Positions 47,743-64,000 of a DNA stretch of 64,000 nt are shown here, one piece after another. Source of the DNA: Naegleria gruberi (taxonomy: Eukaryota). The DNA lies in assembly GCA_000004985.1 (NCBI GenBank), contig GG738907.1. One strand, written 5' to 3'. A program made the translations under genes and the position numbers. The notes beneath the pieces were generated by a model. It did no database searches, was not told the origin of the DNA, and saw only the letters and a program-made list of their open reading frames with translations. Positions within the stretch are counted from its first letter, which is position 1; each line of letters opens with the position of its first letter.

Positions 47743-50700
47743 CTACAAATCATCAAGATATGACAAGTCATCAAAATCTATTTCTGTTGGAGTATTCTTT
47801 TTTCCTTCATCTGTTTTAGTATTGTCCTGTGTCAATTTGATATCAGAGTTCATTTCACTAAAATTAATCGTTGGTTTAAGTGTTTGGATAGGTTCATTAA
47901 ATGATAAATCCTTTTCCAAGTTTGTTGAACTGGTATCTTTCTCAGGAGTCGGTGTCATGAACTCAAACTCTTCAATAATTTCCACTTCACTTCCTGTTGA
48001 AAGTTTTTTCTTTTTTGGAGTGTTATCTTGAGCTTGAATTTCCTCTTTTTCAGGTAGGGAAATTTGATCTATCTTTCGTTTAGAGCTACTACCCTCTTCC
48101 ATTTCTTTCATAATCTCATCAGCGGCATTAAAATCAACTTCTTCATCGCTGAATTCATACTCATTTTCTTCTTCCGTGGTGTTATTAATATTAGTGGTTG
48201 GCTCTTCAGGTGAACCTGATGGTTTGTTCTCTTCAAAGTCATATTCCATTTCATCTTCATCAACCTCAATTTTATGTTTGTGTCGAACAGCAGAGAGCTT
48301 TTCCAAGTGCTTGTTCTTTTCTTTTGGTTTTGAAACCAAAAGATCTTCACTCAGAATACTGTCATCAATATCATCGTCGTCCAATAAAAGTTGCTTACTA
48401 GGCTTATTGATAGGATGATAACAATGTTTAAACTTGCTTAAAAAGTCAAAATCGTTATTGGCCAAAATAATGTCGCTAAGCCAAATAGAACCTGGAATTT
48501 TTTGGGCATGTCCAATAACTTTGCTCCAATATGATCCTCTCAATAGAGTTTTCATTTTACCAACAATAACCAAGTGATTTCTTGCTCTAGAGAGTGCTAC
48601 ATTCAAACGTTGTTTTTGTTCAATGAAAGCCAATCCGTATTCACTTGTTCTTGATGTTGAAACAAAGACAATATTCTTTTCACCACCTTGGAAGGCATCA
48701 ACAGTACTCACTTTAACTGGCTTTAAATTGTTGGTAATGAATTGAGTTTTAAGGTATGTCTCTTGCGTCTTGTATAAGGCAATGACACCAATATCTTCGT
48801 GTGCAATACCATTTTGAAGCAAGAGTTGAATAAAGTGGATTATAGCCTTGGTTTCAAGTTCATTCTTATACGAGTTGTTTTCTAAAGTTTCAGTTCCATT
48901 TTCACAATCAATTACAAGTACAGGTGGCATTCCAGGAATGAGAGCCTCTCTGTCTTCTTCAGTTATACCATCCACCAGTTTTTTGTCATAGAATAGTTCA
49001 TTGGTAATTCTTGAAATTTTTGGATGGCAACGATATTGTGTTCTAAGCAAGTGAGGTTCACAACCAATATTTGACAATCTGATAAATATTGTCTTTTCAA
49101 GAGAATCTTCCTTATTTTCGCCACTTCTACTACCTGTAAGAGTTGGTGGAAGCTGCAAAGGATCACCAACAGCAACAAATTTCATGCAACTAAATCTAGC
49201 AAGTGGAAGTAAAGCAAGAGGTTCCAAACACTGAGAACTTTCGTCAAGAATGAGAATGGAGAACTTTTGATTTTTTAAAACTTCAAAACCAGTGGCTGCA
49301 CATGTAACTCCAACAACACGGGCATCCTTGATAGATTGCTTTCTGTTTTCATAGACACCACTTTTGAGATCCTTGATAGCTTGCTTGATACCAGCTTCTT
49401 CATCAGCATCAATGTCCTTATCCTTTAACATATCCTGAAGGGATTTGATTTGGTCTTTAACAGATGTGTTCTCAGTGCTAACAGTGTAGGGAAGGACCGA
49501 TTTGGCGATCTTCTTTTGACTACCAACTCTGACAAGATTTTTGTAATTTTCAGTGATAAGACCTTCCAGAATGTTATCTACGGCAACATTAGTAACTGAG
49601 GCAATGAGAATTCTTATTGAAGAGTTGTCTGCCTCATCCAATATTCTACACATAAATAATATGAGAACAATCAATAATGTGGTCTTTCCCGCACCAAAAA
49701 CACCATGAACTAGTTATTGTTAGAATAATCAATTAAAGGAAATTAAAAACATACCTAAACAAATTGGAGAAGAAACATCACCCTTCTCAAACCACTTGGC
49801 ACATCTGTAAATAAGATTACCCTGATCCTCATTAAGCTTGTATTCTTCTATAAATGATTTGGCAGTATTGTATATTTCGTCGTGATCCATTTCCAATTCA
49901 AAAGAAACAACTTGTTGATCGGATGCATCTTGTTTCTCTTCATTATCACCCTTGGATTCATCTTCGGTTGCAGTTTTTTCAATTGGTGGTTTAAATTTTG
50001 TTTTCAATCTCTTTCTGAACAATTCCAGTGATTCTTGTTCTGTTGTACCCAATATTTCAGTTAGGAGTGGTAACTTGAGTGGATCCAATTCTGTCAAGTT
50101 TTCAATCATTTCAAATTCAGTAGAAAAGTTTGGACCTCTAATAGCAAATAGTGTCTCTTGCTCTAAATTGACTCCAAGTCCACTAATAATTTCCAATTCA
50201 ACTTTACCATCCTTGTCAGGTCCATGGAAAACACTTTTGGCAAGTACCAAGTGGCCAGTTTTGTATTGGAAATCCTTAGACTTTGACAATATCCAAATGT
50301 CATCCTTGGCATAAACGGCACTCTTTTCCTTGTTTTCTATTTGTAAGAACCATTGAGTAATGGCAGTCTTCTTTCTTGAAGAACCAAAAGTTTGCTTTAC
50401 AAGATCACAACCAAAATAAAAATGAATTCCATTTCTTCTAAAGAAGGACATTCTATCAAAGTCTCCTGTCTTATTTTCCAAGAAACCATTTCTACTATTT
50501 GTAACAAAGGATGGATGAACATTGTTGGCCCAAGAAAAAAAGTTGCAGGTATCATTCATAGTTGACTTTCCGCATCCATAGAATGGTTTGCCCTTGTTTG
50601 GTCCATCTTTCTTGACAATCTTCAATTTGGCCTTGAGGCTACATTTGCAATTAGGAGCATTATCATTCTTTGGTGCTCCTGCCATTGATCCAGTCTGAGT

Positions 50701-59579: not shown

Positions 59580-61047
59580 ATGGGATTAGGAAGTTCAACG
59601 CATGCAGGAGAGGAATTTAGTGCTCCCAAGAGACAATCATCTGCTTCATCATCAACTCAGAAAAAGCCTGAAGATGTTGTTTTGGAGAAGGTTTTAGCCA
59701 ATTCGATTATTAAACAAAAACTTGGTAACAATATTCAACAAATGAAGATGTTTGCTCAGCAGTTGGCCTATCCAGAAGAATTGAAGGAATCGTATTTACA
59801 CACTGATTGGGTACAAACAACAAAGTTGATATCAGACATTTCGACCAAAGTTAACGAAGATGTTTCTAATTTAAATGATGGCAGCAGTAGCCAAGATTTG
59901 ATTAGGAGAGGATCTCAATTACTTCAATCGACACAATCGGCCAATGATATGAAGATTATTGGCTCTTTTAATTCTACAATGAACTCACAAGAAGGAGATA
60001 ATTTTAATAGCGAGCTTGCTAAACAGCCTCCTCTCCAATTGAAGGACAAGATTAGAATTAAATTATTAGTAACCGAAACTGCAAGAAATAATACTGATAG
60101 AACTATTAGACAATTGTTGTCGCCTGTACTGAATCAATTTAATGTTCTACCAGAGATGGGTATGTTCCATACTGCTCTTATTGTAGGTCCATGGAAATTG
60201 GAGGTATGTTCTAATTAACTGACATTTAACTAACATTTAATTTTCTAATTATGTTCTTCATGGTGGACAATGAATATTAATCATCATCATCATTTAATAA
60301 TAATAATAATATGAACTATAGTTTAATGATTCGGGTATTGTAGTACCTAGAAAAATCATGTCACAAGCAGCTGTAGTTACTGCTGATATTGATTATATTT
60401 CGACTGTTGACAGATTGGAACAAGTTATCGACAGTCTTGCTAAAGTAATTTGTAAATGGAACGTGACAATGTATTATAAACAAACAGGTGGAGACAAGTC
60501 AAAATATGGAAATTGTCAAGATTTTGTGGATGACTGCATGGAAGCATTAGGAGTAAAATTAAACTTTGATGGAGCCTTGAAGAATTTCCTGACGCGTTTG
60601 AGAAAAACAGGAAATAGCAAACTTCAATTCGAAATGACCAGAGAATTTATTGAGACTTTTAATCTAGTTGAAATTTATCCATCACTTCAGCGAGCTTTAC
60701 AACAACACCAAGACAACTCGAGTAGTGGATCGAATAATTCTTCAGAGCAGGATGAAGATCCAGCTGGTGCTCTTATTTTTAATACCCATAAGGAACTCGA
60801 CAAGTTTGTTTGGATTTTGATGAATAAGGACTTTGAATTTCAAAATCATTACCCATGTGAATATCAACTTTTGAAATCATTTGATAGAGCTTTCTGGGTT
60901 AAGGCTATCACTTATCCAGACATGCAACAATTCCATCCACTCTATGAAGATGAGGAAAAGAATCAACCACCACCAAAGAATGAAGAAAGGAAACACAAGT
61001 GTCCTTTCGGAGATCCTTGTGCAGCATCATTCATTTATCTTCAATAA
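59580..61047 (+). CDS. PPPDE/DeSI-like (peptidase C97) domain protein with N-myristoylation motif; 2 exons (59580..60203, 60322..61047; intron 118 nt)
   Basis: MGLGSS is an N-myristoylation consensus. Splicing gives GMFHTALIVGPWKLE|FNDSGIVVP, matching the DeSI motif G.(F/Y)HTG(I/V).V.G.EY.FG..GI around the catalytic His. Downstream, KYGNCQDFVDDCMEALG matches the DeSI block NCNHFSDALCQFL around the catalytic Cys. Confidence 0.6.
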
Positions 61048-62804
61048 ATGTCACATTTTATTTCCAAATCACAAAAGAATCTCCTATCGATTCGAATATC
61101 TGAAATCGCCTCCTCCTTAATGTGGAAATAATTGGTAAAGTGTGCAACAGGTAACATTTCTGCTTTCATCAATTCAAAAGCATGATTATCAACCTTGGAT
61201 GAGGTAAGGAAAGTTTTCACAACAAAGCAATCCTGATTCTTACGAAATGGTCTGAAAGAATACATGCTTCTCTTATTGATTGTGAATTTTGGCATATTGA
61301 GTTTTTCCAATTCATTCCTAGTAAAGCCATTAATTTCTCCTCCATAATTAGTTAGGAAATGTCTTGGTTGTTGTTTCCTCTTCTTTGAAACGGCTGTGAA
61401 TCCATCTTCTAGCATTTCTTCGCTTCTAGTCTTGTAAACTGTTGGCCTAGTTTCAGTAAGTGTCTTTTTGGATAGATCCATAATTAACCATTTGGAATTT
61501 TCAAACAATTCCAAGAGAGTAATCTCTTCTGTATTGGTTCCATTATTTGCCCTTTCTAAAAGAATCAAATATTTTGATTCTGTTAATTTACAAACTTCTC
61601 CAATTTTTAAACCTTCCAAGTGTTTTGTTAAGCTTTCCGAAAGAATTTCATCCTTTTCCAAAGTAAAAGCTGATCCATTACTTCCAATAGAAAAAACATC
61701 AGAATTAGCAATCATGAACATGCCTTTGTGAGATGGTAATTCACAAGAAAGGAGCAGTTTCTTTGAGTTTTGAAGTAAACTAGGAAGAGGAAATAATCTC
61801 TTCTCAATTGTATCCAAATCGTACAATACCAACTGATTTTCATTGATTGTGAGAGTATTTGTAGACTTTCTATCTGGGAATATTCGATTCAAAGGAGTGA
61901 ATTTACCAGAAATTAATTCAGATTCTCTTTCAAATGGTGAACTCTTTACATACTTTTCAACCAAAACTCGCGTGTTTGCAATTTCCAATCTATCCATAAT
62001 TAATCTAAACTGTACATACATTCCTTCACTCAAGAATGTGAATTTCCCACTATTCACAATATGATTATCCTCATTCTCAATTTTCACGTCATTTTCAAAA
62101 GTAAACATGTAATGATTCCTCCTGGAAAAATCACCTTCCAATTCCAAATACTTTTTCATCTTGCCATCGATTTCCAAATCCAAGAATATGAAATCCTCCA
62201 AATCACTCACAATCCTAAACTTTCTCATATTTATGAGTGCAATCTTGTATTGAGATATTCCCTGAGTGAAATACTCTCCCTCCACACGTTCAGAATCATG
62301 ATGAAACAAACCACTCGTGTCCTTCCTAATCATCACCAACATGAAAGCATTCGTCATTGCACTCTTAAACCCCTCAAATTCTCTCAATTCCACGCCATTC
62401 TCCTCTACAAAACTAAAGTGCGCAGCCATCATTTTACTCTTAAACAATTGTCTTCTCTTTTCCTTCCGAGCATCCTTAGCATTCATCGTTGTATTTACAT
62501 TCTTATTATTTACATTATTTGATGATGATGAATTATTCCTTTTCAAAGCCTTTGATTTTGTATTATTATTATTATTATTATTAATTTTAATATTATTATT
62601 ATTCAAAGCCTTTGATGATGCGGAATTAATTGGCTTAAATGTTTCATGGCAAATCAAGCCTAAAGGAATGACCTCAGTGGAGGCGATGAAACTCTGTTGT
62701 GTTTCCTCTGGTTGATAATAGTAGTAATCATCGGTTTGGTAGAGATCGTTTTCATAGCCTAATAGACTGTTATATTTGATCGGAATGATACGATCGGCCA
62801 CCAT
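61041..62804 (-). CDS. Hypothetical 587-aa protein with poly-Asn tract (no recognised family)
   Basis: The ORF opens with ATG (atcatcATGgtg). An N-rich low-complexity insert (NNNNIKINNNNNNNTKSKALKRNNSSSS) is encoded by (att/tta)n DNA flanked by the direct repeat caaagcctttgat. The rest is well balanced in composition. The stop overlaps the convergent upstream gene's stop by 7 nt. Confidence 0.4.
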   Translation of the reverse strand: MVADRIIPIKYNSLLGYENDLYQTDDYYYYQPEETQQSFIASTEVIPLGLICHETFKPINSASSKALNNNNIKINNNNNNNTKSKALKRNNSSSSNNVNNKNVNTTMNAKDARKEKRRQLFKSKMMAAHFSFVEENGVELREFEGFKSAMTNAFMLVMIRKDTSGLFHHDSERVEGEYFTQGISQYKIALINMRKFRIVSDLEDFIFLDLEIDGKMKKYLELEGDFSRRNHYMFTFENDVKIENEDNHIVNSGKFTFLSEGMYVQFRLIMDRLEIANTRVLVEKYVKSSPFERESELISGKFTPLNRIFPDRKSTNTLTINENQLVLYDLDTIEKRLFPLPSLLQNSKKLLLSCELPSHKGMFMIANSDVFSIGSNGSAFTLEKDEILSESLTKHLEGLKIGEVCKLTESKYLILLERANNGTNTEEITLLELFENSKWLIMDLSKKTLTETRPTVYKTRSEEMLEDGFTAVSKKRKQQPRHFLTNYGGEINGFTRNELEKLNMPKFTINKRSMYSFRPFRKNQDCFVVKTFLTSSKVDNHAFELMKAEMLPVAHFTNYFHIKEEAISDIRIDRRFFCDLEIKCDIY

Positions 62805-62927
62805 GATGATCTTGTTTTGCTAATTTTTTTTTGTTAATTTTATATATAGAATTATTTTAAATACAGTTTACAATAATATTTTGTAAACTTTGAACTCTAA
62901 TTACCCTAAAAACATGTCCAAAAAAAA

Positions 62928-64000
62928 ATGTCGCAACTCAAACTGCTATTCTCTTTGATGCTGCTCATTTCCATCATCCTGGTCATGACGATGAATTTTC
63001 AAATTAATGGAAAAATCAATCATCACACATTGATGAATATTAATTCCTCCGATGTAGACAAGAAGAAGATGATGAATTATAATAATCAAAAGCGAGTCAG
63101 GGTAAAATCAAACTCTCAATGTGAATGTTCTTCCTATCCAAATTTAGAAATTCATGATGACGAAAAATTGTCTCAAATTTTGTTGGAGGCCAAAATGGAA
63201 TTTATGAAGGGTGTTGTGATGGAAAAATTCAATAGTTTGGATGTTACGTTGATGCTACCTGTCAATGGGACTAAGGTTTGGAGGAGAGGAAGTGTCAATC
63301 CTAGAAAATTGACCTATCCAGCAAGTTGTGTGAAATTGGCTTATTTATTTAGTTCATTCCATTGGTGTAAGAATGTGAAGAGGGAGAGAATTGTGGATTG
63401 TATTGATATTCATACTCATCCAATGATTACTTGGAGTGATAATTTGGAGACTGGATATGTTGTGGATGCCATCTCTGAACAATTGAATTTGTACGATTTG
63501 AATTCTGTCAATGATGCAAGATTTCATTCATGGTTAGAGAAGAGAAATTTCACAATGAAATATTTGGAGAGTAGAAATTTGATTGGAAATCAAATTTTCA
63601 TTGCCAAGACCTATCCAACCAATAGTGGACAAATGCCAATTGGAGCAGAGGCAGTTCAGAGATCTTTCACTGGACCTAATGCAATGGCTCCATGTTGTGC
63701 TGCTTCATTGGTATTGCAGACAATGTATGGACTCGAGAAGGAGGAAACTGATTATGCAAAGAAGTTGTTATTCCATAGAAGATTTGATGATTGGAGTGCT
63801 ATTGCTCCAGCTCTTCCACCTGGAAGTAAGTTTATTTTAATATTATTCGAAATTGACTACTTATTTGAAATGCTCATCAAATGAATGAATTTGTAATGCA
63901 GCTCTCTTACATAACAAGATTGGAAATGCCTATGATAATATTAATGACCTAGTTCATCTTGTTCTTCCAAATGGAAAGGAAGCAATTGTGGCCATCTTAT
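62928..64000 (+). CDS. Class A beta-lactamase-fold serine hydrolase-like protein with signal peptide (3' partial; exon 1 62928..63825, intron 76 nt, exon 2 from 63902 running past window end)
   Basis: Signal/TM MSQLKLLFSLMLLISIILVMTM. The S-x-x-K motif is PASCVKLAYL (compare STFKVLLC). The SDN motif is ITWSDNLETGYVV. ARFHSWLEKRN resembles LDRWEPELN. After the gtaagt...tgcag intron, HNKIGNAYDNINDLVHLVLPNGKEAIVAIL resembles DKTGAGERG...GPNNKAERIVVIY, but with KTG replaced by KIG. Confidence 0.55.

Follow-up and report, generated by a model that had tools for sequence, protein, structure and literature searches.

PBP-A (Tll2115) of Thermosynechococcus elongatus is a small soluble penicillin-binding protein (PBP) and a sister of the class A beta-lactamases, which acts as a DD-carboxypeptidase/endopeptidase on muropeptides and lacks the omega-loop Glu (PMC11189452). 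In the wildtype environmental protein LRA-5, beta-lactamase activity is insignificant because Glu166 is missing (PMC12777564). Here, we examined a gene related to these proteins that starts at position 62928 on the plus strand of a 64,000-nucleotide stretch of Naegleria gruberi DNA (contig GG738907.1 of assembly GCA_000004985.1; referred to as the window) and runs past the end of that stretch. A first-pass annotation, made from the letters of the window, had described its product as a class A beta-lactamase-fold protein in which KTG is replaced by KIG. On sequence evidence, the protein is a member of the PBP/beta-lactamase superfamily that falls into an uncharacterised subfamily nearest to PBP-A and is not a class A beta-lactamase proper.

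The window protein was of little use as a direct query, since phmmer found no match for it in the PDB and the NCBIfam search gave noise, with no match to the class A equivalog model NF033103 (bla_class_A). A family profile was needed. The E-value of PBP-A against this profile was 4e-9 and those of class A enzymes were no better than 3e-5, so that the alignment to both groups proposed by the first-pass annotation singled out PBP-A as the nearest; a single bacterial member alone matched PBP-A at 1.9e-6. We then used structure prediction. An AlphaFold2 model of the orthologue from Naegleria fowleri, generated from a 55-sequence alignment, had a mean predicted local distance difference test score (pLDDT) of 88.7 and a predicted template modelling score (pTM) of 0.86. 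According to this model, the catalytic domain has the two-domain alpha/beta plus all-alpha fold of the penicillin-recognising serine acyl-transferase superfamily. A Foldseek search with the model returned PBP-A at the top (1.4e-10), followed by many class A beta-lactamases, and the fold superposed over 225-237 residues at 2.4-2.8 Å. A model of exon 1 of the window gene (299 residues, without strands beta3-beta5) had a pLDDT of 83.3, with class A enzymes as its top matches at E-values of 0.03-1.

The class A label itself was not borne out by the curated models. Against the NF033103 cut-off of 200 bits, the N. fowleri orthologue scored 15.8 and bacterial members 19.4-29.5. With Pfam PF13354 (Beta-lactamase2; threshold 22 bits), the window protein scored 19.2 and a rebuilt full-length N. 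gruberi-type protein 17.2; since orthologues and bacterial members exceed the threshold (22.8-54.9 bits), we assign the protein to PF13354 by transitive homology. The relation to PBP-A is remote, with 16-17% identity, and we therefore regard the family as a separate subfamily and not as PBP-A proper. The suspicion voiced in the first-pass annotation that the protein is not a true lactamase is thus probably correct, as the curated class A model failed and PBP-A is nearest. UniProt labels the N. fowleri and rotifer homologues "Beta-lactamase class A catalytic domain-containing protein"; databases already recognise the subfamily, and the N. gruberi gene is a new, apparently unannotated member of it.

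The three boxes of the superfamily occur in order in the window protein, as had been noted from the sequence, and are conserved in its homologues; the third has a non-canonical middle residue (Ile). Their positions, together with those of a conserved loop and a Cys-x-Cys motif, are as follows, with conservation counted in a 56-sequence alignment.

63120..63128, plus strand: Cys-Glu-Cys (C-x-C motif), residues 65-67, directly before the catalytic domain
63324..63335, plus strand: SxxK box, S133-C-V-K136, at the N-terminus of helix 135-151; S and K invariant (56/56)
63435..63443, plus strand: SxN box, S170-D-N172; S and N invariant
63606..63650, plus strand: loop K227-T-Y-P-T-N-S-G234 followed by G239-x-E241; invariant columns, in place of the class A omega loop
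63916..63924, plus strand: KxG box, K305-I-G307, on strand beta3; K in 55/56, G in 56/56

In the family profile alignment, the context of the SDN box (PMITWSDNLETG) pairs with ELMITISDNTATN of PBP-A, and HMMER pairs the KxG strand with the KTG strand of PBP-A. hhalign likewise pairs K305-I-G307 with K234-S-G236 of TEM-1; because it aligned only the KxG region, with a probability below 1%, this comparison is useless for placing Glu166. Invariant throughout the 56 sequences are Y130, P131, S133, K136, S170, N172, K227, T228 and P230, and further N232, S233, G234, G239, E241, N251, G307 and A309. The spacing of the boxes differs from that of class A enzymes, with 37 residues from SxxK to SDN against about 60, and 135 from SDN to KxG against 104. 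An incompatible SxxK/SDN spacing had been named beforehand as grounds for rejecting the fold, yet the superposition described above holds despite the difference.

The KIG reading of the third box was correct, whereas the idea that it replaces KTG was not. At residue 306, the 56 sequences have I (18), V (10), P (9), T (6), S (5) or L (5). When the boxes were counted by clade (78 readable K-x-G boxes among 81 aligned sequences), the eukaryote-type sequences had KVG (10), KSG (6), KIG (3), KTG (1) and KPG (1), and the remaining sequences KIG (22), KPG (10), KLG (7), KTG (7) and KAG (5), making KIG the commonest bacterial state. Since the middle residue varies across the whole family, KIG represents an old inherited state and no eukaryotic substitution. 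The hydroxyl of class A Thr/Ser235 has no counterpart, the residue being Ile306.

The family-wide signature of the loop is K-T-Y/W-P-T/S-N-S-G, followed by G239-x-E241, which opens a short helix in both models. E241 lies 10 residues ahead of the invariant N251, whose counterpart in the alignment closes the omega loop of PBP-A; E241 is a candidate for the deacylation base, putatively equivalent to Glu166. The R-W/E-like loop of the first-pass annotation could not be upheld, because R198-F-H-S-W202-L-E204, the one R..W.E string whose spacing resembles that of class A enzymes, is predicted to be helical and its E204 occurs in only 20/56 sequences; neither an RWE nor an ExxLN motif is present in the window protein, and the invariant Glu is E241. 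Among the cysteines, C147 (63366-63368) is invariant, C158 (63399-63401) is present in 37/56 sequences, C134 (63327-63329, inside the SxxK box) in 32/56 and C257 (of C256-C257 at 63693-63698) in 28/56. The conserved cysteines may pair as disulfides, as would fit an enzyme that works outside the cell or in a lumenal compartment.

As the first-pass annotation had stated, the gene leaves the window, and its remainder was read from a metagenomic contig (L001) that is 98.5% identical to window positions 62645-64000 and reaches 755 bases beyond them. Spliced in the same way, L001 (281-1900) encodes a 513-residue protein with a frame open in both exons up to the stop codon and 67% identity to the N. 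fowleri protein over 453 residues. The C-terminal domain lies outside the window, and its N. gruberi-type version is known from L001. In the homologues, Pfam Beta-lactamase2 is followed by Golvesin_C (PF25275), which scored 25.6 bits in the L001-derived protein (cut-off 31.6), 34.2 in the Willaertia protein and up to 197 in bacterial members. When compared with the PDB using the family profile, the C-terminal module matched a Paenibacillus xanthan lyase (6F2P, 2e-19) and family 35 carbohydrate-binding module (CBM35) of the exo-glucosaminidase CsxA (2VZP, 2e-5), and residues 360-504 formed an all-beta domain in the N. fowleri model. Together, these results show that the C-terminal module is a beta-sandwich of the Golvesin_C type, with kinship to both CBM35 and the module that ends the xanthan lyase. 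The xanthan-binding modules of Paenibacillus nanensis enzymes are classed as CBM84, and the ligand of the CsxA CBM35 is a cell-wall surface polysaccharide (PMC11002231). We therefore consider the enzyme a glycan-tethered hydrolase. This domain, the most informative functional clue, is invisible within the window. Since both Pfam domains of the rebuilt N. gruberi-type protein score below their cut-offs, the protein would stay blank under routine annotation.

Next, we surveyed the distribution of the family. A prokaryote scan with one genome per species revealed 92 bacterial loci in four or five phyla, all in uncultured genomes: Sumerlaeota/BRC1, Phycisphaerae/Planctomycetota, Armatimonadota (Chthonomonas), one Gloeobacterales cyanobacterium, and Steroidobacteraceae with other Gammaproteobacteria. 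The gammaproteobacterial members carry an N-terminal FA_hydroxylase/sterol-desaturase membrane domain. The profile search yielded at least 278 protein clusters at E ≤1e-20, among which the only named eukaryotes were Naegleria, Willaertia and the bdelloid rotifers Adineta and Rotaria. Many metagenomic homologues bear the JGI label "protein phosphatase methylesterase 1", which we dismissed as an apparent mis-annotation because Pfam finds only Beta-lactamase2 and Golvesin_C in them. Literature searches on Naegleria or bdelloid beta-lactamases, horizontal gene transfer and Golvesin found nothing specific to this family, and the Willaertia genome paper merely mentions "multiple copies of beta-lactamase genes".

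In a neighbor-joining tree (81 sequences, 251 catalytic-domain columns, 100 bootstraps; distance-based, with an uncertain root), Heterolobosea were monophyletic in 100/100 bootstraps and grouped with the rotifers and 12 metagenomic proteins in 94/100. This eukaryote-type group was split from every named bacterial sequence in 100/100 bootstraps and was nested among bacterial branches, in agreement with the bacterial origin proposed by the first-pass annotation. The tree contained one wrong open reading frame (ORF; L038) as a junk outgroup, which leaves the reported unrooted splits unaffected, and compositional attraction between AT-rich genomes is possible in it. Eukaryote-type neighbors accompany the gene on the contigs of two metagenomic members of the clade (Peptidase_S10, C2 and RecQ on one; KH, DUF1771/Smr and Kelch/Ephrin_rec_like on the other). 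All N-terminally complete members of the eukaryote clade (21/22 of the clade) had a Cys-x-Cys motif (CEC, CGC, CKC, CTC or CPC) and none of the bacterial homologues compared did, which independently supports a single eukaryote-type clade. The motif may have been acquired, once the transfer had taken place, as a disulfide or metal site. The nesting of the eukaryotes among bacteria, their patchy distribution and the integration of the gene into the host genome, evident from introns, host-like composition at third codon positions and host neighbors, indicate that the eukaryotic gene was acquired horizontally.

These features bear on function. The residues of the acyl-enzyme machinery (Ser133, Lys136, Ser170, Asn172, Lys305 and Gly307) are all intact, and one bacterial member (P0123) has a fused C-terminal domain resembling AmiA-type MurNAc-L-Ala amidases (1.8e-34). 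The accessory domains of other bacterial members are extracellular (FN3, Big_1 and one dockerin). The fusions in bacterial members, including the membrane-domain fusion, were seen among P0123, P0080, P0127, L030 (2849-5170) and L033 (2876-5200). The named eukaryotic holders, Naegleria, Willaertia and bdelloid rotifers, are bacterivores. The signal or anchor segment, the acyl-enzyme machinery, the kinship with PBP-A, the CBM-like module, the amidase fusion and bacterivory together suggest a putative phagosomal or secreted DD-peptidase. The interpretation that we favor, although we consider it about equally likely to prove right or wrong, is that of a glycan-tethered DD-carboxypeptidase/endopeptidase that acts on peptidoglycan and aids the digestion of prey walls; most likely, the enzyme does not serve antibiotic resistance. 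A peptidoglycan-directed hydrolase in a bacterivore had also been guessed from the window alone, in agreement with this putative role.

In the proposed mechanism, Ser133, activated by Lys136, would attack the substrate carbonyl to form an acyl-enzyme stabilized by backbone amides (that of Ser133 and the one following Gly307 in strand beta3), and the leaving group would be protonated through Ser170. Deacylation would follow by attack of a water molecule, for whose activation the invariant Glu241 of the omega-loop-like segment is a possible base. The C-terminal module would keep the enzyme on a glycan polymer while peptide stems or cross-links of peptidoglycan are cut, and delivery to the phagosome or the medium would place it where the bacterivore digests prey walls.

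Several observations weigh against a DD-peptidase. The Thr of KTG normally binds the carboxylate of the substrate or beta-lactam. The Ile found here, like the hydrophobic residue of most members, speaks against a carboxylate-binding site of the classical D-Ala-D-Ala type and suggests that recognition of the substrate carboxylate does not involve a Thr hydroxyl, unlike in classical PBPs and beta-lactamases. The nearest relatives of the C-terminal module bind xanthan/uronate-type glycans, not peptidoglycan (PMC11002231). The amidase fusion was found in one cluster only, and no conserved peptidoglycan context or operon surrounded the 43 bacterial loci inspected (86 flanking ORFs); PALP/CBS and EamA recurred in 6-8 of the 86, which we took as local synteny of closely related genomes. 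The equivalence of E241 to Glu166 is inferred, the catalytic-domain model is that of the orthologue (the Foldseek E-values of the exon-1 model being weak), and the family members are biochemically uncharacterised throughout.

Some of these observations would fit another activity better. As a carboxyl-esterase or amidase, the protein could instead attack a glycoconjugate other than peptidoglycan, for example at acyl or D-alanyl esters of teichoic acids, capsules or exopolysaccharides, with the CBM-like domain targeting the polysaccharide and the hydrophobic KxG box reflecting a substrate without a free carboxylate. In most members, I, V, P or L stands between the K and G of the KxG box; the solved structures closest to the C-terminal domain are those of a xanthan lyase module and a CBM35; and one member carries a dockerin. 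In addition, the unique invariant KTYPTNSG loop and the SxxK-to-SDN distance of 37 instead of 60 residues indicate that the surroundings of the active site have been remodelled. Nevertheless, by sequence the nearest protein that has been characterised is a DD-peptidase, the muramoyl-amidase-like domain occurs as a fusion in one member, and at least 12 of the 78 readable boxes are still KTG, KSG or KNG, so that the middle position is simply tolerant. We therefore regard the esterase/amidase as a serious possibility that is clearly less likely than the peptidoglycan-directed DD-peptidase.

It is improbable that the protein is a true class A beta-lactamase hydrolysing beta-lactam antibiotics. The fold and the three boxes are present, class A enzymes are among the best structural matches, and the omega-loop region, which holds Glu166 in class A enzymes, contains the invariant E241. 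Conversely, the bla_class_A scores (15.8-29.5 bits against 200) and the Beta-lactamase2 score of the N. gruberi protein fall below their cut-offs, and Ile occupies the equivalent of Thr/Ser235. The nearest relatives, PBP-A and wildtype LRA-5, have no meaningful beta-lactamase activity (PMC11189452; PMC12777564). Moreover, the CBM fusion and the secretory targeting in a peptidoglycan-free organism give antibiotic hydrolysis no rationale.

The remaining alternatives concern the reality of the gene, for which we assembled the following model of the locus.

62805..62927, no strand: AT-rich intergenic segment of 123 bp between the hydrolase gene and the divergent NAEGRDRAFT_53056
62928..63825, plus strand: exon 1, residues 1-299 and the first base of codon 300, supported by tblastn
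62928..62996, plus strand: N-terminal hydrophobic segment (Kyte-Doolittle), residues 1-23, modelled as a helix
62997..63119, plus strand: Asn/Lys-rich low-complexity linker, residues 24-64, pLDDT 45-58 in the exon-1 model
63826..63901, plus strand: spliceosomal intron of 76 nt, GTAAGT...TGCAG (GT-AG), phase 1, within the codon of Thr300
63902..64000, plus strand: start of exon 2, residues 300-332, strands beta3-beta4; the gene goes on past the window

The ORF starts at ATG 62928 and is still open at 64000, giving a spliced partial product of 332 residues within the window. In a tblastn search, the N. fowleri protein (P0002) matched 63117-63827 with 68% identity, and the splice junction, PPG-T-LLHNKIG, was identical at every residue to the N. 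fowleri and Willaertia proteins. The intron has a GC content of 24%. The short intron that the first-pass annotation had placed before the C-terminal strand region was confirmed by an N. fowleri intron that interrupts the same codon in the same phase (CCTGGAA/GTAAGT ... AG/CTCTCTTACA, with slashes at the splice sites). The N. fowleri gene has one additional upstream intron just before the KTYPTNSG codons (L083 3667-3805) that N. gruberi lacks, and the Willaertia orthologue (L084 3001-4425) has no introns and is collinear over the junction; these differing intron sets indicate that introns were gained or lost within Vahlkampfiidae after the gene had arrived. The signal peptide of the first-pass annotation was supported as a hydrophobic segment, with Kyte-Doolittle window means of up to 2.7 across residues 6-22; residues 1-23 could be either a cleaved signal peptide or a type II signal anchor. 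The orthologue N-termini are likewise hydrophobic, with a classical ...VTG/A site in Willaertia. The Asn/Lys linker of about 40 residues is specific to N. gruberi and is not found in the N. fowleri, Willaertia or rotifer proteins.

The neighboring ORF (61041-62804, minus strand; 587 residues) is identical to XP_002671272.1 (NAEGRDRAFT_53056) of N. gruberi. Since the start codons of the two divergent genes are only 123 bp apart, the segment between them presumably acts as a shared bidirectional promoter. An ATT/AAT trinucleotide run at 62540-62600 gives a poly-Asn tract in the predicted product of NAEGRDRAFT_53056. Composition was host-like, with a GC content of 36% overall and 36% at third codon positions (GC3), compared with a GC3 of 34% in the neighbor and 67-92% in bacterial homologues. 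The best named homologues were N. fowleri FDP41_013034 (69% identity) and Willaertia magna ABK040_012965 (56%), both placed in chromosomal scaffolds. No synteny with either species was detected when 10 kb of window sequence was compared with the 3-kb flanks of both loci, and tblastn found no second copy in the window, a match at 48751-49050 (E 0.03) being judged noise. Two database searches returned no N. gruberi protein for this locus, from which we conclude that the gene is apparently missing from the public N. gruberi protein set.

Comparison with L001 provided a measure of constraint. Differences amounted to 6/76 positions in the intron and 11/997 in the coding sequence, a divergence rate about 7 times higher in the intron than in the exons. 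Residues 61-332 differed by 3 synonymous and 2 conservative nonsynonymous changes, and residues 1-60 (signal and linker) by 6 nonsynonymous and no synonymous changes, suggesting that the latter segment is either free to change or subject to diversifying pressure. A decaying or non-catalytic relic, either a pseudogene or a glycan-binding protein without hydrolytic activity, could account for this N-terminal drift, for the missing database protein and for the sub-threshold Pfam scores. We consider it very unlikely, as the frame is open over both exons and, in L001, up to a stop after 513 residues, the catalytic residues are all kept, nonsynonymous change in the catalytic part is limited to two conservative substitutions beside an intron that differs at 6/76 positions, and identity to N. 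fowleri stays at 67% over 453 residues. Bacterial contamination or a mis-assembled bacterial fragment, for which only the mostly bacterial homologues speak, is refuted by the exact N. gruberi gene 123 bp away in the same sequence, the spliceosomal intron common to N. fowleri, the GC3 of 36% and the orthologues in chromosomal scaffolds of N. fowleri and Willaertia.

The checks of intron and composition that the first-pass annotation had suggested for horizontal transfer, and its view of the gene as eukaryotic and not a contaminant, were thus upheld. With the contamination and pseudogene readings rejected by the exact host neighbor, the composition, the conserved intron and the constrained catalytic part, these results show that this is a genuine, vertically inherited N. 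gruberi gene with bacterial ancestry. Its product belongs to the secretory pathway and consists of a signal or anchor segment, a linker, the catalytic domain and the C-terminal module. The gene is older than the split of N. gruberi and N. fowleri and probably older than that of Naegleria and Willaertia.

The find is modestly interesting and not unprecedented; its most interesting outcome is a multi-lineage eukaryotic clade with its own Cys-x-Cys signature. A bolder scenario, which we put forward tentatively and regard as doubtful, is that this clade (Heterolobosea, bdelloids and at least 2 further protist lineages) goes back to one bacterial donation followed by spread between unrelated bacterivores. 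Its product would then form a new class of digestive wall-degrading enzymes, a CBM-tethered PBP-A-like DD-peptidase with a hydrophobic KxG box and the KTYPTNSG loop that would act as a eukaryotic "lysin". If the proposed function is correct, very different bacterivorous eukaryotes have borrowed a PBP-like enzyme against peptidoglycan, adding a peptide-cutting activity to the known lysozymes and amidases of phagotrophs. The family could also show how the class A/PBP-A scaffold drifts from beta-lactam recognition. Given the conserved, if atypical, catalytic core, the annotation of hundreds of proteins would follow from a single biochemical study. For resistome surveys, such genes should not be counted as eukaryotic "beta-lactamases", and for annotation, the locus is a gene that would escape Pfam-threshold methods and is apparently absent from the N. 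gruberi protein set.

Among described systems, PBP-A (PDB 2J7V/2J8Y/2J9O) is, of the proteins with solved structures, the closest to the catalytic domain in sequence and has the same order of SxxK, SDN and K-x-G. It has KTG where the Naegleria-type family has a variable, mostly hydrophobic middle residue, and its serine-to-serine distance from SxxK to SDN is 61 residues compared with 37. From SDN to KxG, the Naegleria-type family is about 30 residues longer, including the invariant KTYPTNSG...G.E loop, and it has an invariant Glu near the place where PBP-A has no omega-loop Glu; PBP-A also lacks the CBM-like C-terminal domain. Class A enzymes (TEM-1, BlaC, CTX-M, PER and TLA-1) and the class-A-like structures 5TFQ, 4HES, 4EWF and 6V4W have the SDN box in common with the window protein, and their K234-S/T-G236 pairs with KIG and an acidic residue occupies the omega-loop region. 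The window protein differs from them in lacking RWE/ExxLN, in the Ile at 235, in the other spacings, in the extra C-terminal domain and in its eukaryotic host. LRA-5 (a soil-metagenome "class A beta-lactamase precursor", PDB 8EO5) is an environmental class-A-fold protein and a close structural neighbor; it is a single-domain bacterial protein with Val at 166 and has marginal sequence similarity to the Naegleria-type family (E 0.013-0.3). The Golvesin_C, 6F2P and 2VZP modules are beta-sandwich carbohydrate-binding appendages of extracellular enzymes, as in the Naegleria-type family. The closest counterparts are N. fowleri FDP41_013034 and W. magna ABK040_012965, orthologues that have the same architecture and the same KIG box and are, like the N. 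gruberi protein, uncharacterised.

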